IMG/VR virus record: IMGVR_UViG_3300044713_000194
Span: 43,637-107,636 of that record
DNA length: 64,000 nt
Reading direction: 5' to 3' (one strand)
DNA from: a virus
This document shows positions 13,718-47,557 of the stretch, piece after piece. Position numbers and translations under genes: made by a program. Each line of letters opens with the position of its first letter. Position 1 is the first letter of the stretch. Under the pieces are notes generated by a model. The model saw nothing but the letters and a program-made list of their open reading frames with translations, was not told the origin of the DNA and searched no databases.

Positions 13718-16700
13718 TTATTTTGCAGCAAGACCGGCGCTGAAGCCGGACATCCAGTTGACGATGCCCAGCATGTCACTCTGGCGAAAGCGCTTGTCTA
13801 CCATAAGGTAGGTACCGTCTGCCAAGGTCTCAACCGAGAACGTGTAGTAACGCTTCCAGGGAGAAGCATTGAGCGCAGCGGCGATCTTCTCACCGAACTC
13901 GGGATTGACCTTATCGATCGCGCGGAGTTGCGCGGAAATCTCTTTCGATGCTGCCATCTTGGCTCCTTCTTCACCATATTCTGGCGACTTGTCCGCGATC
14001 CGGCGAACATCGTCTTCCGGAAGATGGCTCGCCGTCCTCACCCAGAATTTCCCTTTAAGCGGCCCGGCGTTCAGGTCCTGTTGCTTGAACCCGAAGCTCT
14101 TCGCCAGATTGTCGTAGTACATCTTCACTTTACCGGGCTCGACGGCCTGGTCCCGCGCAGCGATTGAATCGACCGTATGCAAGGCTACGTGCTTGATGCC
14201 ATGACGCCGCGCGATCTCCAGCAACGTCGAGAGCGCGTGCGAAGCCCAGTCCTTGAAAAGATGGGTAAGCTTGTCCTTGATCTCGTCCAGCTTCTCGGCG
14301 GTATAGCCCTGGGCGATGAACGAACGCCGGACCTGGGTGAACCGGGCGGCATCGATTCCCTTCTCGCGTATCGCCTCCCGAATTTTTTCACTCTGAACCT
14401 TCTCCATGAACTCGGCGAAGGTGCGCGATTCCACGATCGCCTTTGCCTGGGTAACAGAATTCACCAGATCGGTCTGAACCTCGTCCACAAGCAGGTAGTG
14501 CTCGTTGACGAAGTCCACGCGGAGCCAGCCTACGGTCTTGTCACCGGACGGGTGGCCCGACATCGTGCTCGACTGGCGCACCATGTCCACATACTGCTCA
14601 AGGACTGGGTCCTCAGCAAGAATGCTCTCCGCGTTTGCGCCCTGGTTGATCTGCAAGACAAGCTGCTCAACATCGCGGAAGGAATTTTCGCCTGCATGGT
14701 ATCGATCGAAAGAAACCTCGTAGTCCGGCGCGGCGGTCTCGTGATAGGACTCCAGCCATTGGGCCAGGTCCTCGCGCGTGACGACGGGACGGTTGTGCCG
14801 GATCTCATTCAGGAGCGGCGTGTACTTCTGTGCGATCTGTTGGAACTGCTTCTGGAACCGAGCCCACGGCAGTGAATCCACATTGTTGTCACCATACCAC
14901 TGGTAGACGCGACGGATGGCGTCGTATTCCTGGGTAAGCGGGCGGTCCGGAATATGAAGCTGGTTGGGGATTGAGGCGGTCTTATCCGCGTCCGGATGCA
15001 GATTCTCCACCACGCCGTCCGGGGACTCTTGTTTTTTCTTCCGGTAGGTCACAAGCTGAGGATAGTCGTTCTCCCATCCGGCGTACGGCTCAATACCTTT
15101 GTCGATTGCCTTGAACATCGCGGAGGCGTGGTCCCAGGTGGGGTGTTTTTTGATCAATTCCAAAGCGTGCTGGACCATCTTTGCCGCCGTTTGCTCGCCG
15201 GTAATGGAGTCGTGTTCCTCCTGAGTGATCGTCTCAAAATTCTGTTTTGGGTCCTGGCGGCCCAGGGATACCCGGCAAGCGTGGGCACCCTCCTCCAGGA
15301 TCGTCGTCATCTGATCCTGGCTCTGAGGATTCATGAAGATCGTCATCTTCCCCTGGTAGCTTCCGAGGGCTCCATGAAAAATGTAATCCTTGTTATCAAC
15401 AACACGACCGTTCTCCACTGCTTTGTTCAGCGCCATAATGGGAACGTTCAGTGCTTTCCGGTAGAGGTCGCGAAGCGCCTTGCCTTGTAAGAAATCGCCT
15501 AGTGTACCGATGATCTGTCCATTGCGAGCACCGCGAAGCTTTCCATAAAGGTCCATGCTCACGCTGCATGGTTGATTTTCAGAGAGGTATTGCGTCTTTG
15601 GGACCTCGTGGGGCTCCTTCTTGGCCGCCACTTTACTCGACGGCGCATACCTCCCTATAATGTCCTCGCCTTCCTCCCACAGCTTCTCGACCTTCGCGGT
15701 CTGCTCCTCGTTCTGTGGATAGGCGGAGCCGCTAAGGCCGATGGTCGGCGACTTCAAATAGAAACGGTCGTTCGTCTTGAAGAGCTTGTAGCGGTAGCTG
15801 CCTGGGTTTTTGTGCTCGACTATTTCGGTAATGCGCTTCTCCATCTTCGGACTCAACCGGCTCGCGTGCGCCCACATGAGCTTTCCGTTCACGTACCGGT
15901 GCATCAGGACAAAGAAAGGTTTGATCACCGACTCATCGACCACATAGCTCTCGTCCGAATGCGGCGTAACGAATCCCTCGCCATATTTGGCGTTGAAGCG
16001 GGCCGCGATTGCGAGCCATGATGGGCCGTGTCCCTTGGTGAAGTCGTACTGCTGGCGAATCTTAAACAGCTTATAGCCTTTCTCCTCCAATTCCTTCCAC
16101 TTATTGACGAGGTTGTCCTCGTGGTGAGCCAACTCGTGGGCGAGGACGCGGCGCACAGTATTTTCATCGCTCATGATCGATTTTTGAAGCTCGATCGTTG
16201 TATTGAGAGCCCCGTGAGGGTCCCCGTTTTGCTGTTGCCCGAACTTCCAAACATCACACCCGAGCCAACCTGCACTGGGCCGGTTGACGATTTTGACTTC
16301 CGGCGTTTCAAGCCCCGGCTGGAGTACTGCCATCAACTCGGTTAGAATAGGACGCCAGTTTACCTGCTCGGCTGCGATGTGCGCCCGCTTGGAGTATGGC
16401 TCCAGGTTCTCATCATTGAGGAGAATATAATCATCGAGTTCTGAAGCTTCGGGCGGAATTTCCCCATCAAAGTAAGCGTTCAAAACCTTTTTCAAATCGG
16501 CCCACGTCACGACGTATGCCTCGATTTCAGCCTTCTTAGCGTTCAGTGCCGCCTGAAGCCGATGGTTCCCGTCCAGGACAAGGTAATGACCATTCCGACG
16601 TTTGGCAACGAGGATCGGAGACAACTCCCGACCTTCTTCCAGGCTCTTCGATAGAGATGTGACCTTCCCCTTATCCGTCGAATTGAAGAAATCGAACTTC

Positions 16701-19700
16701 TGCGGATCGGTGAGTGGTAGAGTCTCCGTCGTTGCGATGGCGAAAATCTCACCCAACCTACGTCCGGCCTTTTTCGACGCGGCGAGCTTCGGCTCACTGG
16801 CCGGACTTTCGATCGAAGGAACGTCGAGCACGTGTACCTGTTTTGGATCGAAAATCACGATGTTGCGAGGTGTTATTGAACCCTCCGCCTTGATTCCACC
16901 AAAACCAGTTTCCTGGATTATACGGTCGAGGAACGCCCAATTAGGTTCGCCGCGCGGATCACTCCAAATCTCCGCCCTATGCGTGTCGTAAAACTCAGCC
17001 CCCTTCTTGCGTCCATAGAGCTTCTCCAGAATCGCCAGAGGTGTGTTGGGCGATTCGGCGTTGATCGTCAGTAACCGCACATCTCCGATCGAGAGCGAAA
17101 GAATCTGATGATTCTCATGCTTCTTGAAATGCGGGTGCATCGGCTGCTCGCTGACGTAGACGCCGGGGCCGAGTTCGCCCCCCACACTCGGGCGAAACCC
17201 CTCCCTGCGAATCACATCTGCAACGCCGGTCGAGTGGTAGTAGATTTTATTTTTGGAAGCGGTGATGCTTGCCTTCTCGGGATTGAAGTCGCCGTTGTTA
17301 CCTATTGCGCTCTTGATCTGGTTGGCGCTAAAGACCGCATAGATGTTGCCCGACGCAGGTGTGCCGTCATAGCCGTTCTCGAAGATGACACCATCGTTAC
17401 CCTGTTTCTTGGCGCTCTCAATCTCACGACCCTTGACATAGCGGATGTCGTATACAGTCTTATTTCTAAGATTGAAATACTCGCCGCGAAACTCATCGGG
17501 CATTTTTGCCAGATCAACAATTCGTGGGTCCTTCAGTGCCAAATACACCGGCATTAAACGTGCCCCATCGCGCCAGCCACCAAAGTAGGTTGCAACTTCA
17601 GGATTCGAAGCAAACCAGGACACCCCAGCGATATTGTCCACGGGACTATCACTCGCCCGCTCACCCTTGTCCGGGTCAAAGGTGTCAAAGTAGGCATTAG
17701 TACCGTGATAAACGCGCAACGGACGTCTATGGTCATCGACTACCTTCGACCCGGCAAACCACGCCTTAAATGCCTGGGTCTCGGTGATGTCACCCGGCTG
17801 ACCCATCCAGTCCTGGTCTTGTGTCGGCCCATCGGCAGTCTTCGCTATAGTGCCGTTCAGCGTAATAACCTTCCTCTCCTTGCTCGGCGTAATGACGGTG
17901 ACTTCACGAATTGTGAAGCTCTTCCCTTTCGTAGTGTCCAGCCCCACATATTTAGCTTCCGCGCCCGGCTTGACGTATGCGATCGTGCAATGGGGCTTGT
18001 AATCGAAGTTGGGCTCGGTGAACCAGTGACCGTTCGTCCTATCACCTTGGCGGCCCAGATAATCGTTGACCTCAAACAGTTCGGGGCATTCGACCGGTGC
18101 AATTATGACCGCAGCATTGTCGCTCGACTCGGAAGGCGGGAACGACGCAGTACTTCCGAGTTTGGCCTGCATAGGGGGTACGGTGCCGAGATATGCCTCG
18201 ATAGCCGAAGTGTCCTCGAACTTGACGCCGTAACGTACGGTAACGTGGTTTTTACCGACGCGGGCTCCCATGCCAGCAAGATCCGTCACGTCGATTTGAT
18301 CGCGCACTTCCTCGATAGCCTCGTTGGCGGCGCTATCTTCGGGAAGGTCTGCCTGGACAGTGCCATAGCTGACCTTGGCGGGTGCGTTGGCTCGTTTCTG
18401 CGTTGCATCTAGGGGGATCACATACCGGTTCAGCCTCTCGTCGAAGCTCACGGGGTATCGCTGCTTAAGATGATCCCACGCTCTTTCGTCGGTCGGCTGG
18501 CGTTGATCGTCAGAAAGGAAGAACTTCGCGCCGCGCTTCTTCGCTTCCGCAATGGCCTTATCGTAAAGAATCTGGCCAAGGCCCGTACCGCGCCATTTGG
18601 AGTCCACTCCGATATAGCGCAAGCGAAAGGCCTTTTGCCCGTCATATCTCGTGCGATATACTGAACATCCCCCGACATGCCGTATCTCGGCAGGCTCATT
18701 CCGGAGTTCTGCGACCAGGTCGAACATGGGACCGTCGTTAGTGATCCGTAATTCCAACTCAGAGATTGGAGTCGGCGGTTGCTTAAGTTCGGCCTGCTTC
18801 GACGCGTAATGCTGGGGCCGCCGCGCCTCAACAGCCTTACAGTTGCTGAGAACGAACCACTCCGCCTGCATCCCGCTGTAGTGACTCTCACCCTGTCGAA
18901 CGCGCATACGCCAGGTCACGAGGGACTCAAGCGCCACACCTTGCACCTTACCGACCGTCTTCCAGACGATTCCGTTCGGGCCATCCGCGAAACCCGCAGC
19001 AGTCTTGTAATTCGCGGACCACGATAGAAGCGGGAAGTGGCTCCCTGTCCAAACCGCCTTTCCGTCGTGATAGTAAGAGTCGGCCCCGGAGTAATATGGT
19101 TCTCCGCGATATAGACACTTGTCCTCGGGATCGGCGGCCCACGGATTTGGAGTGAGAGTTGGTACTGTTTTGATCAACGCCACCAGCTTGTCTGTGAGCG
19201 GCGATTCGCTGAGAATGTCCGGGTGTTGAACGTAGGATGTGATAAGATTCCAGAGATCGTCGTCATTCGCAATCTCATAGCAGACCTTGTCATACTTCGT
19301 TTTAGGAGTTCCATCGTCGTCAAATGCAGCGGCCTTTGGCCCCTTACGCCGATTCAAGTTCCAACGATTCGGCTTATCGGAAAAATGGCTTGGAGCCAGT
19401 TCTTCACCGAGTTCAAAATCCTCGCGCGAAATGGGCGCAGTTTCATCCTCTTTAAGAGCCCGCACCACGTTAGTCAGGAACTTGCGAAAAATCGGCGCTC
19501 CGACCGTGGGGTTGAAGAGATAGATGCGATAGTAGCTCTGAAATGCGTTGCTCTTCCGCGAGAGAATATCCCAGCCGCCTTTGCGCCGAATCCAGATGTA
19601 GACTTCGCGGTCCTCCATCCCCGACTCGCGAAAATCGTGTACGGCCTGGCGAGCAAACGCGGCGATCTCCACCTCATTACCGAGATACTTCGTTACATCC

Positions 19701-22700
19701 CCGTATGGGGACGCTTGCTCGCTTTGGGGAGTGTGGTAGCCTTTATCGAATTTCTCTAAAGTCTTTTCGTAAGCTTGACCACTGGGGTCTTTTTTGCCCT
19801 TGTCTGTACGCCAGCGATCGAACTGGAGCGCGTGTGTGCGCTCATGCACCAGCACACCGGTCGCCTGTTTGACAAAATCGTCCCACCAGCTTGTTCCGTT
19901 CGCTGCGGCATCCCCCAGGTACGATCCCAGACCCGGGCTCAACTTCAAAAGGATCGGGTCAGTACCCGTCCCCATTGCGTTGTATGCGCCGCCCACTCGG
20001 AACTTCAGTGTCCCCGATGCGACAACGGTCGCCGGTGTTCCTTGATAGCGCACCTCAACCGCGTAATCAAGCGCGGCGCTGATTAGCCGAGCAAACTGAT
20101 CATCGCTAACCGCTCCGTGCTTAGCCTCGTCGGCAATCCAATCTCGCGCCCGCTCCAACCCCTTCTTTGCCCACTCTGCATCCGAATCGATCTTTGGGAG
20201 GGAGGCATAAACGCTGTGACGGTTCTCATCAAATTTGCCGGAATTATTCACCGACTTAATCTGATTGGGCTCAAAGACGGCGAACACCGAAGGGTCGCTA
20301 AGATCGATACCGCTCGATGAGATGAACTTTTCACCGGCGACCCACAAGCCGTCGAATCCTTTCGACTTTAAATTCTCGCGCCAGCGCTCAAACCAGGCAG
20401 TGTCCTTCGCGTGCAGATCGCGAATCTCATTCCAGCGGCTGCTCGTGATCTTGTATGGCCGCCGCATCCGGAGGTAAACCTCCATCTGATTCTTGCCGAA
20501 CAATTCGGAGAGATTCGGGTCAGTGGTGAACCAGAAGCCAAACTTGGATGGGCCTGACTGCGATTTCGCGCGATCGAAGGTGTCAAATTCCGCATCGGTT
20601 CCGTGGATCACCGGCAGCGGGTTGCCTTCGCTGTCCACAATCTGTGAGCCGTTGAACCAGGTGATGAATGCTGAAGTATCTGTTACGGGTCCAGCAGACT
20701 GCGGCTTAGCCACCTCCCGCTCAGGGGGAGCCGCAGGTGCGGTGGCTGCGGTCTTAACTGCCTTGCCATTCTCAAACCACTTGATACTTTTGATGGCGCT
20801 ACGGGGAATATCCGCCTCGATGCGCCGATAGCAATCTCCTTGTTTCTTATGCTCAGGATCGGGCTGGCTTTCCCCGGCCCATTCGAACGTAACAACCGCG
20901 CTCTCTCCGGGCTTGTCGAGTTCGTGCCATGAGATCGACTTACCATACTCGTAAGCGAAACCCGGCAACGTCGTGCACCACACATACTTCTTGGGGTACC
21001 TTGGATTCTTACCGTGCCCGGCTTTGATGCCTTCCTGCGCGATCTTTTCAGCAGCGGCCCAAGTGGTGCCGTGATAGTAAAGGCGTGTTGTAGACTCCGC
21101 TGGTGCCTCCACTGCGGCGGTCACCTTGTTGCTCTCCGGATCGAAGGTCCCCACATTGCCTTCAGCGTCTACGATCTGGGAGCCGGAGAACCAGGCCTTG
21201 AAGGCCGGGCTCCCGGTGACCGGTGCGCCTGGTGTTTTGACGGCGGCAATCTTGGTTTCCGCAAGCAAACGACCGTAATCCACATCCATGATCTTTTTTG
21301 CTTTTGCGACTGGAACCTCTTCGCCGCCGATCAGGTAGCGCGTATTGCCGGGGCCGAAAACCTTCTCGCGAATTTGAAGCGGGCCACTTCCTTCTAGGGC
21401 TCCCCGTAACAGGTGTACCCCACGGGCCTTCAACTCCTTCTTCGCCATTTGGTACAGCTTCAGAGCAATGCCTTGGCGTTGGTAGTTTCCCTTGACATCG
21501 ACAGCCATCACCGTCGCCGAGCCTGGGTTGCGGTAGTCGATCTGGAGGAGACCTACGCGAGGGATGCCGTCCTCATCGTCGGAATCCATATCAAACGCGG
21601 CCAGGTCGAAACCATTCGGACGGCGGGTGATACCATATTGAAGCGATTCTTTAGATTCTGTGGTTGAGGCCTCTTTCGGAATTCCCGCGTCAACGTCGCG
21701 CGTTACAACCGAGATATTCGACGGCGGAATGGTTGTCCCGACCACCAGTTCGTAGTCGGCGGTAGTCTTTAGCAACTGCGCGTCGGATGGGACACTGACC
21801 TTAAGCAGCGCCAACCTGGTTTCCTCTCCGAACTGCTCACCCAACCAGTTGTCAAGGGCAGTCTCCACTGCCTCCACATCACGGAATAGATAAATAGCGC
21901 CCAATGGCTCGCCCAGTGCACGGGACCGTGGCCCCTGCTTTGGTACCAGCCCCTCGGTCATAATCCGCTTAAGGTTCCGCGCCGGTGTAATGTGGTACCC
22001 AATACGCGAGGCCTGACCAGGGGTAATCACGGAGGCCGTCTTCGACTCACCCACGGGGAAGCGTCCGGATTTCTTGATCTCCTTCATCATCGAGCGGATT
22101 TCACGCATCGTTCCGTACAAAGGGAACCGCTCATGATTGCCAATGAAGTCGCGGCGGAATTCTTCCGGCAGCCAGGGACCCTTGAGATCGTATTGCCCAG
22201 GGGCCATGCCGAAGTCGTGGGCCATCTCGTCGAGCGTCCGCTTGCCCTTCACATCGAAGTCACCCTGGCCGGGGACGCGGCAAAAGGCATGTGTTATTTC
22301 GTACGGTATCCCGTCATCCCACGCCTTTCCATCGGGATTCGATAGGGCGTACACCTTCGCGCCGGGGTTCAGCAGACCAAGGGCGACGGCAAAAACGCCG
22401 CATTCTTTGCTCTCGCGAATATCGTGATCGAGGGCGGAGGCCGACTTCTTTGTCTCCTCGGCAGGAACGACCGCCAAAATTTCAAGCTTCGACGGATCGA
22501 AGACACCCAGATTCACGTGTCCTTCCCCCGTTTCAAGGAAGGAGTCGTAACCGTTCGCCTTCATCCAACGCACGAATTCGGGGCTCTGCGTCGCATCCCA
22601 ATTCCGCTGCGCGAGCGCCTTCATGTATCCTTCAGGATCTTCACTGCCGTCCGGCCAAATCTCATCGGCACAGATGGCGTCGTAGACTTTCTTCCCGAGG

Positions 22701-22993
22701 GCCGGATAGGTTTTAGGGTCGAGGTAGTACCGCTGGCTGTAATCAAGCAGGGTATCCCCATCAAAGGTGTTGCTTACGTCGGCGCGGACGGTGTAAACCC
22801 ACCCGTGGAAGCCAGCATGTGCTCGTGCAAAGCCTAGATCGGGTGTGAGAAAGATCGGCTGCTCTGCGATCTCCCGGGTAACGCCCCCCTTTGACGTGGT
22901 CTTGAACTGGTCGAAGCGATGGTGCGAGCCGTGGTACCACGTCCGTGCTGCCGCATCGTTACCAGGTTTTGGAAGCAGCCGGTCCAATCGCAA
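13718..22993 (-). CDS. Giant polyvalent multidomain protein: several ADP-ribosyltransferase-like domains, 2 GNAT, 2H phosphoesterase (Acb1-like), ParB-like, HExxH zincin/SprT-like and papain-like modules
   Basis: YHGS/YHGT/YHIT ART motifs; YRG..SWS..QAE; YQRQGIA and WRGTGLG GNAT motifs; HVT/HCT pair; LDGNHRL; HERTH and HELAH. Confidence 0.85.
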   Translation of the reverse strand: MRLDRLLPKPGNDAAARTWYHGSHHRFDQFKTTSKGGVTREIAEQPIFLTPDLGFARAHAGFHGWVYTVRADVSNTFDGDTLLDYSQRYYLDPKTYPALGKKVYDAICADEIWPDGSEDPEGYMKALAQRNWDATQSPEFVRWMKANGYDSFLETGEGHVNLGVFDPSKLEILAVVPAEETKKSASALDHDIRESKECGVFAVALGLLNPGAKVYALSNPDGKAWDDGIPYEITHAFCRVPGQGDFDVKGKRTLDEMAHDFGMAPGQYDLKGPWLPEEFRRDFIGNHERFPLYGTMREIRSMMKEIKKSGRFPVGESKTASVITPGQASRIGYHITPARNLKRIMTEGLVPKQGPRSRALGEPLGAIYLFRDVEAVETALDNWLGEQFGEETRLALLKVSVPSDAQLLKTTADYELVVGTTIPPSNISVVTRDVDAGIPKEASTTESKESLQYGITRRPNGFDLAAFDMDSDDEDGIPRVGLLQIDYRNPGSATVMAVDVKGNYQRQGIALKLYQMAKKELKARGVHLLRGALEGSGPLQIREKVFGPGNTRYLIGGEEVPVAKAKKIMDVDYGRLLAETKIAAVKTPGAPVTGSPAFKAWFSGSQIVDAEGNVGTFDPESNKVTAAVEAPAESTTRLYYHGTTWAAAEKIAQEGIKAGHGKNPRYPKKYVWCTTLPGFAYEYGKSISWHELDKPGESAVVTFEWAGESQPDPEHKKQGDCYRRIEADIPRSAIKSIKWFENGKAVKTAATAPAAPPEREVAKPQSAGPVTDTSAFITWFNGSQIVDSEGNPLPVIHGTDAEFDTFDRAKSQSGPSKFGFWFTTDPNLSELFGKNQMEVYLRMRRPYKITSSRWNEIRDLHAKDTAWFERWRENLKSKGFDGLWVAGEKFISSSGIDLSDPSVFAVFEPNQIKSVNNSGKFDENRHSVYASLPKIDSDAEWAKKGLERARDWIADEAKHGAVSDDQFARLISAALDYAVEVRYQGTPATVVASGTLKFRVGGAYNAMGTGTDPILLKLSPGLGSYLGDAAANGTSWWDDFVKQATGVLVHERTHALQFDRWRTDKGKKDPSGQAYEKTLEKFDKGYHTPQSEQASPYGDVTKYLGNEVEIAAFARQAVHDFRESGMEDREVYIWIRRKGGWDILSRKSNAFQSYYRIYLFNPTVGAPIFRKFLTNVVRALKEDETAPISREDFELGEELAPSHFSDKPNRWNLNRRKGPKAAAFDDDGTPKTKYDKVCYEIANDDDLWNLITSYVQHPDILSESPLTDKLVALIKTVPTLTPNPWAADPEDKCLYRGEPYYSGADSYYHDGKAVWTGSHFPLLSWSANYKTAAGFADGPNGIVWKTVGKVQGVALESLVTWRMRVRQGESHYSGMQAEWFVLSNCKAVEARRPQHYASKQAELKQPPTPISELELRITNDGPMFDLVAELRNEPAEIRHVGGCSVYRTRYDGQKAFRLRYIGVDSKWRGTGLGQILYDKAIAEAKKRGAKFFLSDDQRQPTDERAWDHLKQRYPVSFDERLNRYVIPLDATQKRANAPAKVSYGTVQADLPEDSAANEAIEEVRDQIDVTDLAGMGARVGKNHVTVRYGVKFEDTSAIEAYLGTVPPMQAKLGSTASFPPSESSDNAAVIIAPVECPELFEVNDYLGRQGDRTNGHWFTEPNFDYKPHCTIAYVKPGAEAKYVGLDTTKGKSFTIREVTVITPSKERKVITLNGTIAKTADGPTQDQDWMGQPGDITETQAFKAWFAGSKVVDDHRRPLRVYHGTNAYFDTFDPDKGERASDSPVDNIAGVSWFASNPEVATYFGGWRDGARLMPVYLALKDPRIVDLAKMPDEFRGEYFNLRNKTVYDIRYVKGREIESAKKQGNDGVIFENGYDGTPASGNIYAVFSANQIKSAIGNNGDFNPEKASITASKNKIYYHSTGVADVIRREGFRPSVGGELGPGVYVSEQPMHPHFKKHENHQILSLSIGDVRLLTINAESPNTPLAILEKLYGRKKGAEFYDTHRAEIWSDPRGEPNWAFLDRIIQETGFGGIKAEGSITPRNIVIFDPKQVHVLDVPSIESPASEPKLAASKKAGRRLGEIFAIATTETLPLTDPQKFDFFNSTDKGKVTSLSKSLEEGRELSPILVAKRRNGHYLVLDGNHRLQAALNAKKAEIEAYVVTWADLKKVLNAYFDGEIPPEASELDDYILLNDENLEPYSKRAHIAAEQVNWRPILTELMAVLQPGLETPEVKIVNRPSAGWLGCDVWKFGQQQNGDPHGALNTTIELQKSIMSDENTVRRVLAHELAHHEDNLVNKWKELEEKGYKLFKIRQQYDFTKGHGPSWLAIAARFNAKYGEGFVTPHSDESYVVDESVIKPFFVLMHRYVNGKLMWAHASRLSPKMEKRITEIVEHKNPGSYRYKLFKTNDRFYLKSPTIGLSGSAYPQNEEQTAKVEKLWEEGEDIIGRYAPSSKVAAKKEPHEVPKTQYLSENQPCSVSMDLYGKLRGARNGQIIGTLGDFLQGKALRDLYRKALNVPIMALNKAVENGRVVDNKDYIFHGALGSYQGKMTIFMNPQSQDQMTTILEEGAHACRVSLGRQDPKQNFETITQEEHDSITGEQTAAKMVQHALELIKKHPTWDHASAMFKAIDKGIEPYAGWENDYPQLVTYRKKKQESPDGVVENLHPDADKTASIPNQLHIPDRPLTQEYDAIRRVYQWYGDNNVDSLPWARFQKQFQQIAQKYTPLLNEIRHNRPVVTREDLAQWLESYHETAAPDYEVSFDRYHAGENSFRDVEQLVLQINQGANAESILAEDPVLEQYVDMVRQSSTMSGHPSGDKTVGWLRVDFVNEHYLLVDEVQTDLVNSVTQAKAIVESRTFAEFMEKVQSEKIREAIREKGIDAARFTQVRRSFIAQGYTAEKLDEIKDKLTHLFKDWASHALSTLLEIARRHGIKHVALHTVDSIAARDQAVEPGKVKMYYDNLAKSFGFKQQDLNAGPLKGKFWVRTASHLPEDDVRRIADKSPEYGEEGAKMAASKEISAQLRAIDKVNPEFGEKIAAALNASPWKRYYTFSVETLADGTYLMVDKRFRQSDMLGIVNWMSGFSAGLAAK

Positions 22994-23147: not shown

Positions 23148-24002
23148 TCATCCGAGAATCCATCTGTTTTGTCTCAATCCAGACGAGCAGGGGCGGTTAG
23201 CGGTGAGGTTGACGGCCCACTCCTGAAACTCGGATTTGTAGGACTCGGCCAGGGATTGGTACGTGGCCGATTTGTTGATGTCGAGCGAAACGCCGTTGAG
23301 GGAGTAGCCAAATTCCTCCTCGGCCCATCGGGCTGCTTCTTTGCCCAGGCAATGGCCCGCCGCGCCGACTGCCGCCGCATCGGCCCATACGTCGGGGGCG
23401 TTCTCCAGCCTGTATTCGGTCCAGTTCATCGGGTTCCAAGTATTCAACTGGCTAATGGACAGGCGGAGCATGCGAGTTATGGTTGAATCGGTCCAGATGT
23501 AGCCGACCCGTGTGTTGAATCCCGCGACGACTTTACCCGGCGTCGGCGGACGGAAGTGATAATTACGGTCCGGGTTCTCATCGGAAAGAAGCTCGCGGAC
23601 TGTCATGATGTGGCGAGCAATCTTGGGGCTGAGGCCCGGCTTAGAGGTCATCAGAACGGAGGGCGCTTCAAAACTCGTCTGCGCGGGATCTATACGAACG
23701 ACTTCGAACTCTTCGTACACCTGACGCTCTTGATCGTTGGGGTACTGAACGACGTACCAGACCAGGTCGTATCTGCCGTCCCAATTTGAAGGGATCGTGA
23801 GATTGACGTAGTAGGTGCCGTTCCCGGCGCGAGCCGGTACCTGCTTGGGCGGACTGGCCAACGTGCGGACATTGGTAGCCGGGTCAACCGAAAAAATTGA
23901 GTAGGAAATGTAAGCGGGATCGACGAAGTAGCCGCGCTCATCGCGTAAATTGATGCCCAGATCGCCTGGGGCCAGGGTCTTGCCTTGGTTGATAACAATC
24001 AT
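23148..24002 (-). CDS. Putative virion structural protein (Ig-like N-terminus, head-tail adaptor-like C-terminus)
   Basis: AGGAG RBS; 284 aa; position in the late-strand block. Confidence 0.55.
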   Translation of the reverse strand: MIVINQGKTLAPGDLGINLRDERGYFVDPAYISYSIFSVDPATNVRTLASPPKQVPARAGNGTYYVNLTIPSNWDGRYDLVWYVVQYPNDQERQVYEEFEVVRIDPAQTSFEAPSVLMTSKPGLSPKIARHIMTVRELLSDENPDRNYHFRPPTPGKVVAGFNTRVGYIWTDSTITRMLRLSISQLNTWNPMNWTEYRLENAPDVWADAAAVGAAGHCLGKEAARWAEEEFGYSLNGVSLDINKSATYQSLAESYKSEFQEWAVNLTANRPCSSGLRQNRWILG

Positions 24003-24111
24003 TCCGGCTCCTAGGAGAATCGGGGGAAGCCCTGCCGGGGGCGCTAAATCCCCGGCCCGGACATCCCCTACAAAGGGCCTGATAGCCGAAATAAAGAATT
24101 TTGCGCGATCC

Positions 24112-24142
24112 TCGCAACTTTCACGCGTAGATTACGTCCAAG
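24112..24142 (+). promoter_or_regulatory. tRNA-operon promoter 1 (ECF-sigma-like GCAAC-N16-CGTC)
   Basis: TCGCAACTTT-N9-ATTACGTCCAAG; both boxes identical in the three copies, each upstream of a leader ORF. Confidence 0.85.
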
Positions 24143-24147
24143 GAGAT

Positions 24148-24252
24148 GTGAAACATTTATTGTCGAGTTCGCTATCCCTCTCATCGCTGTGCTATTTGCT
24201 CAGCGGTACGGGTTCGCGTGCTGGAAAGCGGGACGGTTACGATTACTACTAA
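24148..24252 (+). CDS. Attenuator leader peptide 1, MKHLLSSSLSLSSLCYLLSGTGSRAGKRDGYDYY
   Basis: AAGGAG RBS and GTG start; contains TTA, TTG, CTA, CTC, CTG, TCG, TCC, TCA, AGT/AGC, TGC and TAT/TAC, matching all 11 downstream tRNAs. Confidence 0.85.
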   Translation: MKHLLSSSLSLSSLCYLLSGTGSRAGKRDGYDYY

Positions 24253-24277
24253 CCACCGCTGACAAGCAGGAAACGCG

Positions 24278-24308
24278 AACCCCACCAGAAATGGTGGGGT
24301 TTTGCTTT
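24278..24308 (+). terminator. Attenuator terminator 1
   Basis: AACCCCACCA-GAAA-TGGTGGGGTT then TTGCTTT. The 5' arm region ACGCGAACCC (24273-24282) is complementary to leader GGGTTCGCGT (24210-24219). Confidence 0.88.
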
Positions 24309-24310
24309 GT

Positions 24311-24396
24311 GCGGGCATGGCTGGAATTGGCAGACGCGACGGTCCCAAACACCGTTGTCCCTGGACGTGGGGGTTCGACTCCCTCTGCCCGCACCA
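24311..24396 (+). tRNA. tRNA-Leu(CAA)
   Basis: Cloverleaf, long variable arm, CCA end; loop CC-CAA-AC (C33). Confidence 0.88.
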
Positions 24397-24411
24397 ACAT
24401 ATTTAGTACGT

Positions 24412-24500
24412 GCACACGTGGGTGAGCGGCTAAAACCACCTGTCTGTAAAACAGGCGCTCCATGCGGGCTACGCAGGTTCAAATCCTGCCGGGTGCACCA
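24412..24500 (+). tRNA. tRNA-Tyr(GTA)
   Basis: CCTGT-CTGTAAA-ACAGG arm, long variable arm, CCA. Confidence 0.92.
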
Positions 24501-24518
24501 GGTTTTGTTTTGCAATGA

Positions 24519-24593
24519 GTGTCGGAACCTAATCGGCTAAGGAATGGTCTGCAAAACCATATTTGGCGGGTTCGACTCCCGCTCGACACTCCA
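24519..24593 (+). tRNA. tRNA-Cys(GCA)
   Basis: ATGGT-CTGCAAA-ACCAT arm, U73, CCA. Confidence 0.9.
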
Positions 24594-24613
24594 TTAGTTT
24601 TGATTTGAAATGT

Positions 24614-24698
24614 CGGGACGTGGCGGAATTGGTAGACGCGCAGGCTTGAGGTGCCTGTGTCCTTGGACGTAAGGGTTCGACTCCCTTCGTCCCGACCA
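24614..24698 (+). tRNA. tRNA-Leu(GAG)
   Basis: CAGGC-TTGAGGT-GCCTG arm, CCA. Confidence 0.93.
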
Positions 24699-24704
24699 TC
24701 GAGA

Positions 24705-24816
24705 TTGTGTACTGATCCTCGTGAAACGAGGCGCTGGCCGAACCCCCAGTGGACTGGACGAGAGTTGTGGCAGGCGAATTGACGCCAAGACGTTAGCGTA
24801 CTCCGGTCGTACACAA
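24705..24816 (+). ncRNA. Candidate structured ncRNA between two Leu tRNAs
   Basis: TTGTGTAC/GTACACAA terminal stem enclosing several hairpins (CCTCGT-GAA-ACGAGG, CCAG-TGGA-CTGG, GGCG-AATTGA-CGCC). Confidence 0.5.
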
Positions 24817-24829
24817 AATTCAGTTATGT

Positions 24830-24918
24830 GCCCGCGTGGCGGAATTGGCAGACGCGCACGGTTCAGGTCCGTGAGGCCCTTCGGGGCCGTGGAGGTTCAA
24901 GTCCTCTCGTGGGCACCA
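24830..24918 (+). tRNA. tRNA-Leu(CAG)
   Basis: CACGG-TTCAGGT-CCGTG arm, long variable arm, CCA. Confidence 0.93.
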
Positions 24919-25026
24919 TGAGGTTCAAAGCGTTGAAACGTGAACTACGAGTTGTCAACTCACAAGTTGTCTAGTCATACATAGTCAAGTCGTACGTTGG
25001 TGCCTATGTATAGATAGTCGGGCCAT

Positions 25027-25115
25027 GGGGGCGTAGCAAAATGGCAAAGCGCCGGTCTTAGAAACCGGAGGAGGTAACCCCTTCATTGCGAGTTCGACTC
25101 TCGCCGCCCCCACCA
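25027..25115 (+). tRNA. tRNA-Leu(TAG)
   Basis: CCGGT-CTTAGAA-ACCGG arm, long variable arm, CCA. Confidence 0.9.
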
Positions 25116-25267
25116 CAAGTTCATGCTGTCGCGCGATCGCAAGTGTTTCGTGCGTCCACAAGCAAATAGTGTTGTGCGATTGCAAGCTTTTCATGTTGTG
25201 CGTTGGTTAGCTTTTAGCGTCAAGGTCTGATGGTTTCGAGAAGAAATCCGACGGTACCTGACGACGA

Positions 25268-25345
25268 GCCCGAGTGAAGGGAAATGGCAGACCTCCCCGC
25301 CTTAAGATCGGGGGCTTGTCGGTTCGAAGCCGACCTCGGGCACCA
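25268..25345 (+). tRNA. tRNA-Leu(TAA), short variable loop
   Basis: Loop CT-TAA-GA; 78 nt; no long variable arm; A73-CCA. Confidence 0.82.
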
Positions 25346-25356
25346 AAATCTGAAAC

Positions 25357-25444
25357 GGTGAGTTGGGAGAGAGGCTGATTCCAGCGGATTGCTAATCCGC
25401 CGAGCCTTCGGGCTCCGCGAGTTCGAATCTCGCACTCACCGCCA
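25357..25444 (+). tRNA. tRNA-Ser(GCT)
   Basis: GCGGA-TTGCTAA-TCCGC arm, long variable arm, G73-CCA. Confidence 0.93.
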
Positions 25445-25554
25445 TATTTGCTGTGCAGCAAATATTACCGTTTAGGAGGCCTTGAGCCCTTAATCGGTAA
25501 AATGTTGCCTATTAACGAGGAATGTGTGAAGCTCCCGCCTCGTTAATGAATCAA

Positions 25555-25649
25555 GGTGTCGTGCGTGAGAGACTGAAACGACTCGCTTGGAAAGCGAGCA
25601 GCCCGGCTGAAACCCGGGCTCCTGGGTTTGAATCCCAGCGACACCGCCA
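25555..25649 (+). tRNA. tRNA-Ser(GGA)
   Basis: CTCGC-TTGGAAA-GCGAG arm, long variable arm, CCA. Confidence 0.9.
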
Positions 25650-25707
25650 ATTTGTCCCCATACATGGGGCGTTAATCGGCTTTAAAGGGCTATATATGGG
25701 TATTTAC

Positions 25708-25802
25708 GGTGGGGTGGCAGAGCCCGCTTTATTGCACCGGTCTCGAAAATCGGCGTGGCCGTGATCCGGCTACCGTGGGTTGAAATCCCACCCCCACCGC
25801 CA
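25708..25802 (+). tRNA. tRNA-Ser(CGA)
   Basis: CCGGT-CTCGAAA-ATCGG arm, long variable arm, CCA. Confidence 0.88.
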
Positions 25803-25853
25803 GCTTGGTGCACGAATCGTAGCTCAGCTACGACGTATAGAATCGTTTCAAAC

Positions 25854-25941
25854 GGAGGGCTGCCGGAGTGGTTTATCGGGCCGGTCTTGAAAACCGTTGA
25901 GCCTTCGGGCTCCGTGGGTTCGAATCCCACGCCCTCCTCCA
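25854..25941 (+). tRNA. tRNA-Ser(TGA)
   Basis: Loop CT-TGA-AA, long variable arm, CCA. Confidence 0.92.
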
Positions 25942-37057: not shown

Positions 37058-37088
37058 CAAAGCAAAACCCCCGGCCTTAGCCGGGGGT
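37058..37088 (-). terminator. Attenuator terminator 2
   Basis: ACCCCCGGC-TAAG-GCCGGGGGT then TTTGCTTT. The 5' arm region CACGACCCCC is complementary (with a bulge) to the leader end GGGGGTTCCGTG. Confidence 0.88.
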
Positions 37089-37114
37089 CGTGAACCTACG
37101 AGTAAACCACTCGG

Positions 37115-37216
37115 TTACACGGAACCCCCCAGCACGCGATCCCATCCTTCGCGCACTACGCTCTCCATCCGCTTAACGCGGATGTTGACAGTCGTTTTTA
37201 TGGTCCTGGAGTTCAT
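37115..37216 (-). CDS. Attenuator leader peptide 2, MNSRTIKTTVNIRVKRMESVVREGWDRVLGGSV
   Basis: GAAGGA RBS; contains AGG, ATA, AAA, ATC, CGC, AAG, CGG, ATG, GTA, GAA, GGA, TGG and GAT, matching all 13 downstream tRNAs. Confidence 0.85.
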   Translation of the reverse strand: MNSRTIKTTVNIRVKRMESVVREGWDRVLGGSV

Positions 37217-37237
37217 GTAAAGAGTATCCTTCCCTTG

Positions 37238-37268
37238 CTTGGACGTAATCCCTAGCCAAAAGTTGCGA
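37238..37268 (-). promoter_or_regulatory. tRNA-operon promoter 2 (GCAAC-N16-CGTC)
   Basis: TCGCAACTTTTGGCTAGGGATTACGTCCAAG. Confidence 0.85.
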
Positions 37269-39720: not shown

Positions 39721-40926
39721 TCAGTCTTTATAGGGGTCCCGCTCTGTCGAAGACGCCATTGCCACGCCAACCGGCGTCAGCCGGTGCAGAATCTTGACCG
39801 AGTCCTCGACTGAAGCCAGGACCTCGTCAAGGCGCTTGTAGCAATCCGGCGACTCATCGAGGCCGCCGCCGCGAAGCTCGATACCCGCGCGATCGATCCA
39901 GGCACGCATCATCTCCTGGGTAACTTTGCCTTCACGGACGACGCGGACTTCACCCGTCTCCTTGTTCTTCTTGGTAACACCGGTCGCTTCCTTGCGCCCC
40001 ATCGCGCGGCCTGCACCGTGCACGGTCGAGTAGAGAGAGTACTTTGCGTTCTCGTTCTCGACACCCTCAAGGATCACCGACTGCTCACCCATCGAGCCGC
40101 CGACAAAGCCCTTCCGGCCTGGGTAGGCCGGTGTTGCCCCCTTACGGACAACCCAATACCACTCACCGCCATGGAATTCACGCCATGCATAATTGTGGTG
40201 GTTGTGGACTTCCTCAATAACGGGAGCGCCGAGAATCTTTGCAACGCGATCACATACCCAGTCGCGGCCCGAATAAGCGTAGGCACCGGCCAAATGCATC
40301 GCCAGGAGGTACTGGTCACCGAGATCGCTCTTCACGTCAAGCACGCATGGCTCAACCTCCATGCCGTCCTTCGCTCCGGCAGCCTTGAGGAACCAGGTTG
40401 CGATGCCGTGGCCAAGACCGCGCGAACCGAAGTGCACGCCAATCCAGACGCGATCCTGCTCGTCGGTGAACAGGTCCACGTAGTGGTTGCCGGAGCCCAC
40501 CGTACCAAGCTGAACGACAGCCTTCTGATGCAGAGGCTTGCAGGCCGCCAGCTTCCACGCATCGGCATGGGCGAAGTCTTCCCACAAGACGGAGCTATCG
40601 ACCTTCTCGTTGTTCTTGCGGCCTACGCCGAAGCTGATCGTCTTCCACACGTCGTCCATGATCGTCTTGATGTTGGCGCGAAGCTCCGTGCCGGTCATGT
40701 CTACGCGGACTGCCTTGTTGCCGCAGCCGATGTCGTAGCCCACGCCGGTCGGGCTGATGGCATCCTTGTACGCCACCACTCCGCCGATCGGCACACCGTA
40801 GCCCAGATGGTTGTCTGGCATCAGCGCCACCTTGTCGGCGGTCTTCGCGCACGTGCGTATCTGGTTGAGCGTCTTCTCGTCGGCTTCGCCGAATACCGGG
40901 ATCTTTCCGTCAATGAGTTGCATCAT
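39721..40926 (-). CDS. rtcB: RtcB RNA ligase (2',3'-cyclic phosphate/5'-OH)
   Basis: MPDNHLGYGVPIGG, GYDIGCG, GSGNHY, HFGSRG, NHHN, RKGAT, HGAGR, DESPDCYK. Confidence 0.95.
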   Translation of the reverse strand: MMQLIDGKIPVFGEADEKTLNQIRTCAKTADKVALMPDNHLGYGVPIGGVVAYKDAISPTGVGYDIGCGNKAVRVDMTGTELRANIKTIMDDVWKTISFGVGRKNNEKVDSSVLWEDFAHADAWKLAACKPLHQKAVVQLGTVGSGNHYVDLFTDEQDRVWIGVHFGSRGLGHGIATWFLKAAGAKDGMEVEPCVLDVKSDLGDQYLLAMHLAGAYAYSGRDWVCDRVAKILGAPVIEEVHNHHNYAWREFHGGEWYWVVRKGATPAYPGRKGFVGGSMGEQSVILEGVENENAKYSLYSTVHGAGRAMGRKEATGVTKKNKETGEVRVVREGKVTQEMMRAWIDRAGIELRGGGLDESPDCYKRLDEVLASVEDSVKILHRLTPVGVAMASSTERDPYKD

Positions 40927-42519
40927 TTCTTTTCTCCCGCGACCTCGTCTTTTGACCAGTACCACTTTCCCTTATTCTGCACTACGCCCTTGAATCCACG
41001 CGGTGGGCAAAACTCGCGGCCTTCTATGTCGAGGAATGCCCGCTTGCGAGCCCGTATAGCGTAGATACCGTCCCTCATGCATGGTTGGGGCACAATTGGC
41101 AGTAGAACTGCGATCGCCATCAACGTTCACACCTGGGCTGTCCAGTAGTTCTCGCGTCGAATGCAATCGAGGCAAGCTCCGCAGCCGCTGCAATGGCTTA
41201 CCGCCGGTACCCGCATTGCCGCGAGGACGCGTGCCGCCAAAGTATCGTCGAACTTTTCGGATCGTCCATCGAAGAAGCCTCTCATAGGCTCCTGCCGTGG
41301 CCGATAGCAATGCTTTCGAATCTCGTCTGCGGTCTTGATGTCTTGTGCGATCGGCTTCACGTCACAATGAATGCAGAGGCGGTTGACGATGTTTACCGAG
41401 CCGCAACGATCACAGAAGGCGTGACCGTCCGCGCGGTAGTTGATGCCGTCGCGCATGGAGTACTCCATGGGCTCCGCCGCACATTCGTCTCCCGTGGTAT
41501 TTGGCATGTTCCGAAAACCTCCCTAGTGGCTAATACTGAGGCGGAAGGACGGAATTCACATACCCATTAACATTATTCCAAATATTCTTGGTGACCGCCC
41601 TGCGCCGCCCGTTTATGTGCTTCGCGGCGTTTCCGCTTGTGTCCAAAGTACTTATCGGCGTGACAAAGCTTTGAGCCGCAGCCAAGGTTCCACTTGGAGT
41701 ATCGACCCCAGGCGGAAGGCTCCGTGGGATGGACACGGTTGATGAGGTTGGTGCGTTCCTGAACGCGGTGACTGTCGGTCCAGACGTGGTCATGGATAAA
41801 GCGCCGCTTCGCGATGACGCGGTCGCGCTGGTGCCGACGTTCGGCACGATTGGTTGGATGACTCATGGCTGATGCCGCCCCCTTCGTGCGGTGTGTTACA
41901 TCGAAGCCATGAATTCCTCCTCGGACACTTCCACAAGAATCGCCCCCGTTTCGTCTTCAATTATCCACTTGCGATCGAGCCCAAGCTCAATCAGTTCGCG
42001 TACCCCGATTTCAGGAGGCACATCGGCCAGGTTCCTCAGCCGGATTTCACTCAGCCTAATTTGGAGAGACCGAAGACTGAACATCGTTCCATTGAGTTCC
42101 CGCAGCGCGGCTTTGAAATCGAAGATACCGTTCATAAGTCTGTGCCCTTGTGTGTTTCCAGTTGGTGTGGATCAGAAGGCGCAAGAAATTCAGTACCGGG
42201 CTGTTTTCGATGAACTCCACTGGGAGGCCGTCACGACCGATCGGAGTCTTGCCGAATATCTTCACCCTCGCCCCCTTTCTCTACTGGCGCATGATCCGAT
42301 TCCGGCAACATACACTTAGGAATCTCCGTGCGTATTCCGCCGATATATGCGCACACCTCGATACAATCGTCCCAGCTATGCCCGTCCTTGCGCATATTGC
42401 GCACCAGGCGCTCCAGCCCGCGCCGAAAGTTCCGGATTTCCCGCCTACGCTGGAGCCACTTTTTCAGCCAGATCATATTCGCCTTTCGTCAAACTTCCCG
42501 GCGTCTTGCCACTGAGACC

Positions 42520-45400: not shown

Positions 45401-45475
45401 TGGCTGGCGGAGGAGGAATCGAACCCCTCATTCAACGGGCCAAAACCGTTTGTCCGACCGTTAGACGATCCGCCA
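45401..45475 (-). tRNA. tRNA-Gln(TTG)
   Basis: AACGG-TTTTGGC-CCGTT arm, G73-CCA. Confidence 0.9.
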
Positions 45476-46190
45476 AAATTCTCTTTATAACGATCCCTAC
45501 TCTTGTTCCACTAACTCCTAACTGTTCAGCGACCCGACTTTTTGTGCTACACTGGACCATCCTTAATAACTCATCATCAGTTGGCCACACAATTTTTTGC
45601 TTATACTGTGCATTGCTCGACCTCGAACACTTTTGACATAACCGGCTCTTGTGTGCAGTCAAACGTTTCTCACATTTTTGGCATTTCGGTAGAGTTGAAT
45701 TACGTGTGTTCTTTCCGCAAAATGTCTCTAACTGGCTATCGCAATTAGGGCATACGAGCCTAAGATTAGGTAGTCTAGCATCGTCGTAGATTCCGTTTTC
45801 ATGATCCAATCGGAGGACGAGTGGCTTACCATTCCACTTAGGTCCTAGATCGCAAATCGAACAGCGGTTTTTAAGGATACCTTCCTTAATCAACCTTCTC
45901 TTCAGAGAGCGCCGACTGTACTTCGAATGCTCAACCAATATCTGATCCAACGGAACCATGGGGGCTGCCCATGAGCGCCCGGCGTGCCACCCGGGCTGAA
46001 GCGTCTCAAAATGATCAAGGTTAAGTCCGGACTCTTCTACGCGTCTCCTAAAGGTTCGAAAATTTCCGCCCTTATTATGCAGTCCCCAGTACGCCAACGC
46101 CTCCCGAATGCTGTTACTTCTGCGCACGATCTGCGCAAACTCATCGTCCGATACTTGCCAAATGACACTTGTTCGCCTTCCCATATTCAC
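45432..46190 (-). CDS. HNH homing endonuclease overlapping tRNA-Gln(TTG)
   Basis: CSIC...LRLDHENG...NLRLVCPNCDSQ; lower GC; 3' end reads into the tRNA. Confidence 0.88.
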   Translation of the reverse strand: MNMGRRTSVIWQVSDDEFAQIVRRSNSIREALAYWGLHNKGGNFRTFRRRVEESGLNLDHFETLQPGWHAGRSWAAPMVPLDQILVEHSKYSRRSLKRRLIKEGILKNRCSICDLGPKWNGKPLVLRLDHENGIYDDARLPNLRLVCPNCDSQLETFCGKNTRNSTLPKCQKCEKRLTAHKSRLCQKCSRSSNAQYKQKIVWPTDDELLRMVQCSTKSRVAEQLGVSGTRVGIVIKRILADRLTVGQTVLAR

Positions 46191-46488
46191 CCCTTCTAAG
46201 GGGTTAATACCTACCGAGACCCATCAAACCGGAATATGTACCAGTGTGAATATCGTCCTGCCGTTGAACGAACCGCCATCAAAAAATTACCTTACTAGCA
46301 CTTTCTCAAATTTCATCGGGGACCCGTCGTGGTCGGAAATCGTTCGCCCCGCAAGCACACCCACGCCAGCGCCTCAATCTTTCACGGCGGGGCCGAGCTT
46401 ACAAAGCACTACCACTGCCCTCGTCTTGGTCTTAGAACCCATGCCTCCAAGCTGACGTTGCATTATTCGTCCGCGTCGCTGTCGAAAC

Positions 46489-47350: not shown

Positions 47351-47380
47351 AATGAAAACCCCAGGCGCTTTGCCTGGGGT
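47351..47380 (-). terminator. Attenuator terminator 3
   Basis: ACCCCAGGC-AAAGC-GCCTGGGGT then TTTCATT. The 5' arm region GAGACCCC is complementary to the leader end GGGGTCTC. Confidence 0.88.
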
Positions 47381-47405
47381 CTCGAAACCTGCGATCGCTG
47401 ATCGC

Positions 47406-47504
47406 TTAGTCGATGAGACCCCCGTTCAGATGCGCGGGCGTACCGGCCTGCGGCTGATTGCCGTTGGCTGGTACGGTAAACCGGGTTGTTGCTTGCTGCA
47501 TCAT
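47406..47504 (-). CDS. Attenuator leader peptide 3, MMQQATTRFTVPANGNQPQAGTPAHLNGGLID
   Basis: GGAAGAGG RBS; contains ATG, CAG, CAA, GCA, ACA, ACC, ACG, TTT, CCA, CCG, CCC, AAC, GGC and CAT, matching all 14 downstream tRNAs. Confidence 0.85.
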   Translation of the reverse strand: MMQQATTRFTVPANGNQPQAGTPAHLNGGLID

Positions 47505-47526
47505 CGACACAAAACCTCTTCCTATG

Positions 47527-47557
47527 CTTGGACGTAATGTTTTTGCAAAAGTTGCGA
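47527..47557 (-). promoter_or_regulatory. tRNA-operon promoter 3 (GCAAC-N16-CGTC)
   Basis: TCGCAACTTTTGCAAAAACATTACGTCCAAG. Confidence 0.85.

Follow-up and report, generated by a model that had tools for sequence, protein, structure and literature searches.

Among the leader-peptide attenuators of the enterobacteria are trpL, hisL, leuL and pheL, the multivalent thrL and ilvGMEDA leaders, in which a single leader senses several amino acids, and the attenuator of pheST. A model of the pheL attenuator is described in PMC3082878. In the attenuators of amino-acid operons, a short leader rich in regulatory codons is followed by an intrinsic terminator located just before the regulated genes; the 3' strand of the antiterminator overlaps the 5' arm of the terminator, a hairpin formed by regions 1 and 2 lies within the leader, and the terminator is the thermodynamically favoured structure, so that the control must be kinetic. 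Judged from its sequence and predicted folds, the phage locus analysed here is alike in all these respects, and shares with the thr and ilv leaders the apparent sensing of several amino acids by one leader. On the other hand, the attenuators of amino-acid operons regulate biosynthetic or synthetase genes, whereas the phage cassette would regulate 11 tRNA genes, so that its output would directly replace the sensed molecule. Other differences are that the phage leader samples four amino acids and approximately eleven tRNA species with 16 consecutive codons, that its stop codon is placed well downstream of region 2, and that, in a phage setting, three parallel cassettes partition a near-complete set of tRNAs. 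Since its targets are tRNA genes, the cassette is not a member of the classical trp, his, leu, thr, ilv or phe attenuators, whose defining feature it lacks. From the analysis that follows it was concluded that these phage tRNA genes are probably subject to a control in the style of the trp operon, i.e., that the tRNAs are made only when ribosomes stall for lack of them. No published account of leader-peptide control of tRNA genes was found in full-text literature searches, and the genome papers of Tunturi and phiCbK are silent on both leaders and attenuation. An attenuator before E. coli pheV was also considered and discarded; it does not exist, and pheV has a plain promoter.

The nearest published inducible spare tRNA set is the trn operon of Anabaena sp. 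PCC 7120, a long tRNA array that is induced under translational stress (PMC8421152). The phage cassettes would resemble this array in being supernumerary, horizontally mobile, silent by default and inducible by an impairment of translation, as well as in the association or co-regulation of rtcB. In contrast, the Anabaena array is controlled by a protein repressor, TrcR, whose binding sites are direct repeats located over the -10 box (PMC10272220), and no leader or attenuator is reported in PMC8421152; a search of the window for the TrcR direct-repeat signature, allowing at most one mismatch, gave 0 matches. T-box riboswitches also choose between a terminator and an antiterminator according to the status of a tRNA; however, they bind the uncharged tRNA directly, do not need translation and control synthetase or amino-acid genes, unlike the phage cassette. 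Neither a T-box nor any other Rfam leader family was detected in the window, where only tRNA reached the threshold; the best sub-threshold match within 24050-24320 was to an unrelated hairpin-terminator leader, with 29.7 of 55 bits.

The leader frame and the tRNA block

The window, i.e., the whole stretch of 64,000 nucleotides that was analysed, is the final 64 kb of a single virus contig of 107,636 bp, and contains 39 tRNA genes. This contig has many proteins in common with the Tunturiibacter phage Tunturi_5, a jumbo myophage of 309 kb whose host belongs to the Acidobacteriota; the identity is 74% for RtcB (gp296) and 62% for a neighbour gene. Judging from its sequence, the contig represents part of the genome of a giant soil phage related to Tunturi_5, and from the protein kinship the Acidobacteriota were inferred to be the likely host phylum. 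Two very large ORFs are present on the minus strand, at 13718-22993 (3091 aa) and 50692-56046 (1784 aa), and a part of the former shows 53% identity over 194 aa to gp321 of Tunturi_5, annotated as a NUDIX hydrolase. A protein of 272 aa encoded at 48828-49646 (minus strand) has a GmrSD N-terminal domain (Pfam E = 1.5e-14) and is 46% identical to gp317 of the same phage, which has been likened to the BrxU/GmrSD type IV restriction enzymes (PMC11924767).

The block of tRNA genes that follows the leader (block 1) extends from 24311 to 25941 on the plus strand. ARAGORN identified 11 genes in it: Leu caa, Tyr, Cys, Leu gag, Leu cag, Leu tag, Leu taa, Ser gct, Ser gga, Ser cga and Ser tga; nine of the 11 were also matched by the tRNA family of Rfam. 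Five Leu, four Ser, one Cys and one Tyr tRNA are the content that had been claimed for it, although its description as a class II tRNA block does not fit the Cys gene, whose product is not a class II tRNA. A sigma-70 scan gave no sigma-70-like promoter inside the block on the plus strand. The gene located upstream of the leader, at 23148-24002, is divergent, therefore the intergenic region belongs to the plus-strand unit. An element of approximately 125 nt was found between the tRNAs of the Leu/Ser/Tyr/Cys block in three phages (window 24699-24829, plus strand; L001 2402-2523, minus strand; L012 2766-2888, plus strand). It has an invariant core of 26 nt and a consensus fold of 32 pairs, nine of them with compensatory changes, and had no match in Rfam; it is a candidate for a new small RNA lying within the array of tRNAs.

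The leader is preceded by a promoter-like motif (24112-24142, plus strand), formed by a 10-nt box, nine variable nucleotides and a 12-nt box, that is common to three cassettes of the contig. The exact 21-base bipartite motif is present in three copies in the window, where 0.01 are expected, and no further copies were detected in the 107.6-kb contig even when up to five substitutions were allowed. A variant of it precedes the leader in L001, a closer metagenomic relative of this phage. Scanning a collection of viral contigs with the motif gave no match, and scanning a metagenome collection gave only the L001 contig and chance matches without tRNAs. The motif does not follow the sigma-70 consensus, and the sigma-70 scan gave no match at 24112-24142; its action as a promoter is inferred, given that the transcription start has not been mapped. 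Read as its reverse complement, the 3' half of the motif (24131-24142) agrees at 11 of 12 positions with tRNA-Leu(gag) in its variable-arm region (24662-24673). This likeness was set aside as probably fortuitous, since two of the cassettes headed by the motif have blocks without any Leu tRNA.

The leader ORF (24148-24252, plus strand) runs from GTG to TAA and has 34 sense codons. The position and the frame of its start are conserved in relatives, and the homologous start codon is ATG in L001, in Tunturi_5 and in G002, a more distant phage of 231 kb. A Shine-Dalgarno-like AAGGAG is found at 24140-24145, only 2 nt before the GTG, which is an atypical spacing, and an ATG-TGA start-stop overlaps the start of the leader at 24146-24151. 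The homologous leaders of L001 and Tunturi_5 have no Shine-Dalgarno sequence. It is likely that the leader has a very short 5' UTR, on which translation may begin; that the ORF is translated at all is an inference.

Reading of the frame bore out the run on which the original prediction was based: codons 4-19 (24157-24204, plus strand) are 16 consecutive codons for Leu, Ser, Cys or Tyr. In the six frames of the 107.6-kb contig this is the sole run of at least nine such codons, and only four runs of at least 11 were found in 386 kb of the contig and related phage DNA; three of these are the homologous leaders, and the fourth is out of frame in a membrane-protein gene. The run of L001 differs from that of leader 1 at eight places, and all eight differences are synonymous or are swaps among Leu, Ser and Cys. 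Twenty of 33 codons of leader 1 are cognate to block 1 and 13 are not, while only 6 and 8 are cognate to the other two blocks of the contig. None of the 21,575 windows of 33 codons taken from the 43 long ORFs of the contig reached 20 block-cognate codons, and 0.2% of them covered all eleven tRNAs of block 1. Within the same stretch, cognate codons amount to 22/44 in the leader frame versus 9/44 in the other two frames. Six codons exist for Leu and as many for Ser, and frames of low complexity do occur, so that a Leu/Ser-rich open frame and a hairpin could have come to lie before a tRNA block by chance; nevertheless, this is scarcely credible in view of the uniqueness of the run, the motif common to the three cassettes and the replication in relatives, and it is contradicted by the comparative data described below.

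Whether the leader enumerates individual isoacceptors is a subtler matter. The claim that it covers all of them is true for this phage (11/11), but the excess over what the amino-acid composition alone would give depends on the wobble rule: given this composition, full coverage has P = 0.49 when U34 is allowed to read A and G, and P = 0.004 when only Watson-Crick cognates are counted. Strict enumeration is incomplete in the closest relatives of leader 1, hence it is not conserved. For nine units of the kind described below, the strict Watson-Crick rule gave 85 cognate codons against 74.7 expected (P = 0.0025). No significant preference for rare codons was found in the three leaders of the contig (P = 0.06, 0.43 and 0.23; combined 0.07). 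Likewise, the ORF does end in TAC GAT TAC TAC before the TAA, as had been pointed out, but the terminal Tyr codons are not conserved in relatives.

Sister cassettes and related phages

The contig carries three cassettes, in each of which the promoter-like motif and a leader ORF are followed by a terminator and the tRNA block. The other two are on the minus strand: the one at 47351-47556 (motif 47556-47527, leader ORF 47510-47406, terminator 47381-47351) precedes a block that goes from Asn to His, RtcB, Arg gcg and Pro ggg, and the one at 37058-37267 (motif 37267-37238, leader ORF 37216-37115, terminator 37088-37058) precedes a block that goes from Trp to Gly tcc. After each copy of the motif come an ORF of 32-34 codons, a hairpin rich in GC whose T-rich tail is much alike in the three cassettes, and the tRNA genes. 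When each leader was compared with each block, the cognate codons on the diagonal were 20/33, 21/33 and 20/32 versus 3-9 off the diagonal; likewise, each leader covers 11/11, 13/14 and 13/14 tRNAs of its own block versus 4-7 of the others. The peptide character of the sister leaders is entirely different from that of leader 1.

Within the block behind the cassette at 47556-47351, the gene for the RtcB tRNA ligase (39721-40965, minus strand; Pfam E = 6.6e-69) is co-oriented with the tRNA genes. An ORF of 252 aa at 45401-46280 (minus strand), with zinc-finger/HNH-like motifs and no Pfam match, overlaps the 5' end of tRNA-Gln(ttg), and immediately upstream of it, at approximately 46275-46240, there is a sequence similar to a tRNA 5' half. 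This arrangement looks like a homing-endonuclease insertion in which part of the tRNA gene was duplicated.

Tunturi_5 has the same three blocks, and each is preceded by a mini-ORF with a terminator; the coverage of its own block by each leader is 8/9, 15/16 and 16/16 tRNAs, respectively. L001 retains the cassette of leader 1, with a coverage of 11/11 tRNAs. G002 has its tRNAs grouped differently, and its leaders cover 7/7 and 13/14: the one that precedes a Tyr/Leu block is rich in Leu, Tyr and Ser and lacks Cys, and the one that precedes a Val/Gly/Ala/Asp/Glu/Cys block is rich in Val, Ala and Gly, and includes Glu, Asp and one Cys codon. The off-diagonal values remain low across these relatives, and 9/9 units in four phages match their own block. 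The co-variation of leader composition with block content, with the Cys codon tracking the Cys tRNA, is observed; as far as sequence comparison alone can tell, it represents the strongest argument for a selection of the codons in relation to the tRNAs. A cassette is not found immediately upstream of every cluster, given that in the third cluster (Ile/Thr/Gln) of G002, G004 and G005 the tRNA genes directly follow protein genes, with no adjacent leader. A scan of viral contigs for the terminator-plus-tRNA pattern gave no match, and the pattern used was too strict.

G002 and G005 also carry suppressor tRNAs with the anticodon CUA and a tmRNA gene (L014 6824-6897 and 10875-11275; L015 8412-8489 and 9127-9203), which hints at amber reassignment or suppression in this group of phages; no tRNA with this anticodon is present in the window.

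A like design was observed in an unrelated phage lineage. In phiCbK (JX100813.1, 47200-52800), the annotated gene gp083, whose product of 45 aa is rich in Ser, Leu, Pro and Lys, is placed with an annotated terminator directly before two Pro, two Lys, three Leu and two Ser tRNAs, and a second mini-ORF with a terminator is placed before Phe, Val, Ile, Ile, Val, Gln and Gln tRNAs. There is no sequence similarity to the window cassette and the host phylum is different; the match between leader and block, judged by eye only, is looser than in the window cassette.

Predicted pairing in the leader transcript

The intrinsic terminator of leader 1 (24277-24310, plus strand) has a stem of 11 pairs at 24277-24302, a loop of 4 nt and a T-rich tail; the hairpin has a predicted energy of -19 to -22 kcal/mol and ends 6-8 nt before tRNA-Leu(caa). 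Its tail is nearly identical to those of cassette 3 and of unit 1 of Tunturi_5. The 5' strand of the antiterminator, or region 2 (24205-24221, core 24210-24219, plus strand), follows the codon run, and the 3' strand, or region 3 (24270-24287, core 24273-24282, plus strand), overlaps the 5' arm of the terminator; the duplex of both regions was calculated at -23.2 kcal/mol. The perfect complementarity of 10 nt that had been noticed between the cores is exact. In the forced-terminator MFE fold, part of the run (region 1, 24163-24178, plus strand) is predicted to pair with region 2 if it is free of ribosomes, and in this state it holds region 2 around a hairpin formed in the 3' part of the run (P1, 24183-24207, plus strand; -13.1 kcal/mol), a candidate pause hairpin. 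P1 and the region 1:2 extension were found in the four units of the leader 1 type, nested in the same way but with different arm sequences. The resulting scheme of 1:2, 2:3 and 3:4 pairings in leader 1 and in units of its type is the same as in the trp attenuator. When both states were forced, leader 1 gave nearly isoenergetic folds, of -59.3 kcal/mol for the antiterminator and -60.5 kcal/mol for the terminator.

A second pairing of 8 nt (24200-24207 with 24255-24262, plus strand), proposed as a competitor of the first, is also an exact complement; however, the fold in which it is forced is 6-7 kcal/mol worse. As a conserved element it was rejected: it is strong in this phage only and not in the relatives.

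In the antiterminator region, the MAFFT alignment of the four units of the leader 1 type did not have the quality needed for an analysis of covariation by columns, therefore a matrix of duplexes across units was used instead. In leader 1, the duplex between the ORF and the terminator arm has -23.0 kcal/mol, a value reached by 1.3% of shuffled ORFs and not surpassed in either its row or its column of the matrix. Over the nine units, the cognate duplexes have a mean of -21.2 kcal/mol versus -14.9 kcal/mol for the 72 non-cognate pairs, an advantage matched by 0/20,000 permutations. The sequences of the antiterminator strands vary between phages while complementarity is kept, and the terminator sequence differs from unit to unit. 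The support for an antiterminator is weak in three units, namely T5_1, T5_3 and the cassette at 37267-37058. The distance from the stop codon to the terminator stem is 22-26 nt in eight of the nine.

These observations bear on a reading in which the product of the ORF is a small functional peptide and the ORF has a terminator of its own, or else no translation takes place, and the terminator is a constitutive leaky stop that only adjusts how much tRNA is transcribed, the match of the codons being a by-product. The peptides of the leader 1 type can be aligned, are hydrophobic and look somewhat like a signal or membrane segment, a canonical ribosome-binding site is absent, and the terminator is thermodynamically dominant, all of which speaks for it. 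Nevertheless, the sister leaders share no peptide character, and such a by-product would leave unexplained the nine matches of a leader to its own block, the restriction of the substitutions within the run to the same four amino acids, the cognate-specific complementarity of ORF and terminator arm, and the conserved spacing between stop codon and terminator. We regard this reading as improbable.

How the alternative structures would be exchanged was approached by folding. In transcripts cut before the 3' arm of the terminator, the MFE folds of all nine units pair a segment of the 3' part of the ORF with the 5' arm of the terminator. With equilibrium folding of the full-length leaders and a ribosome mask, the terminator was formed in the three window cassettes at every position of the ribosome (P >= 0.9), without a flip; in the leader of L001 the antiterminator wins even at equilibrium. 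Since there is no flip at equilibrium, the switch must be kinetic, as in trp, although its kinetics are inferred. In a simple footprint model, in which no pair may span the ribosome and which contains no kinetics, the terminator arm of leader 1 was sequestered with a probability of 0.55-0.78 when the A site was at codons 2-17, and of 0-0.4 from codon 19 on, where the run ends; the same step was shown by each of the remaining eight units. The stop codon of the leader is approximately 30 nt downstream of region 2, so that a ribosome waiting at the stop leaves region 2 uncovered. It has to be assumed, then, that the antiterminator is blocked from the stop codon either by steric exclusion, no helix being able to close around the ribosome, or by a close coupling of ribosome and polymerase.

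The antiterminator formed in cut transcripts without any ribosome implies that read-through is the predicted default, and this is compatible with a cassette that couples transcription of the tRNAs to translation but senses a general signal, such as the global rate of translation, amino-acid starvation or the stage of the infection, instead of specific tRNAs. Any slowing or loss of leader translation would then open the terminator, and the codons would only be a representative sample. The equilibrium behaviour of L001, the lack of significance of the isoacceptor-level match under the lenient wobble rule, and the induction of the Anabaena tRNA array by general translational stress (PMC8421152) also speak for it. 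However, a general signal has no need for three leaders of disjoint composition, nor for a composition that, from phage to phage, tracks what the block contains, the Cys codon included, and the enrichment of strict cognates over the nine units also goes against it. For these reasons a general signal seems unlikely to us, without being dismissed.

A probable sensor for decoding capacity

The idea of a leader-peptide attenuator whose codons sample the downstream block, put forward in the original prediction, is supported by the sister cassettes, the relatives, the conserved spacing, the cognate pairing and the folding, while the regulation itself is inferred. There is no experimental or transcript evidence; nevertheless, on the observed anatomy, statistics and conservation, we consider it likely that 24112-24310 is a ribosome-mediated (leader-peptide) transcription attenuator that gates the block at 24311-25941.

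According to this attenuator model, transcription would begin at the dedicated promoter-like motif, and a ribosome would translate the 34-codon leader close behind the RNA polymerase. When the Leu, Ser, Cys and Tyr codons are promptly decoded, the ribosome would be over or past region 2 (24205-24221) as region 3 and the terminator emerge; the hairpin at 24277-24302 would then form and transcription would end 6 nt before tRNA-Leu. If, on the contrary, the ribosome stalls anywhere between approximately codons 4 and 17 through the scarcity, lack of charging or damage of a tRNA of this set (the natural stalling signal is inferred), region 2 would remain free to pair with region 3, through the 10 perfect pairs and their extension, and the 5' arm of the terminator would be sequestered, with read-through into the tRNA genes. 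Given that the tRNAs produced would relieve the stall, the circuit would be a homeostatic loop. Together, the three cassettes would give the phage a separate measure of decoding capacity for each of three groups of amino acids.

A bolder proposal, possible but only tentative, is that the cassettes are a codon-resolved sensor of damage to the host tRNA pool and, together with phiCbK, represent a widespread and undescribed principle of regulation in phages rich in tRNA genes. When a host anticodon nuclease or a phage-induced turnover of host tRNAs removes certain tRNAs, only the leader that samples those codons would stall; that cassette alone would open and supply the replacement phage tRNAs, and a sister block would also supply the RtcB repair ligase.

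The reason why large phages carry near-complete sets of tRNAs is currently explained by the matching of codon usage and by the escape from defences that target tRNAs. If an attenuator precedes each block, the phage would gauge decoding capacity directly and the tRNAs would be made on demand. This idea is directly testable in Tunturi_5, which carries the same three cassettes and is in culture together with its host, Tunturiibacter psychrotolerans X4BP1 (PMC11924767). If it is true, a textbook bacterial mechanism would be extended to a new class of target genes, and these phages would provide a natural and compact device for sensing the availability of tRNAs, in which groups of amino acids have channels of their own.
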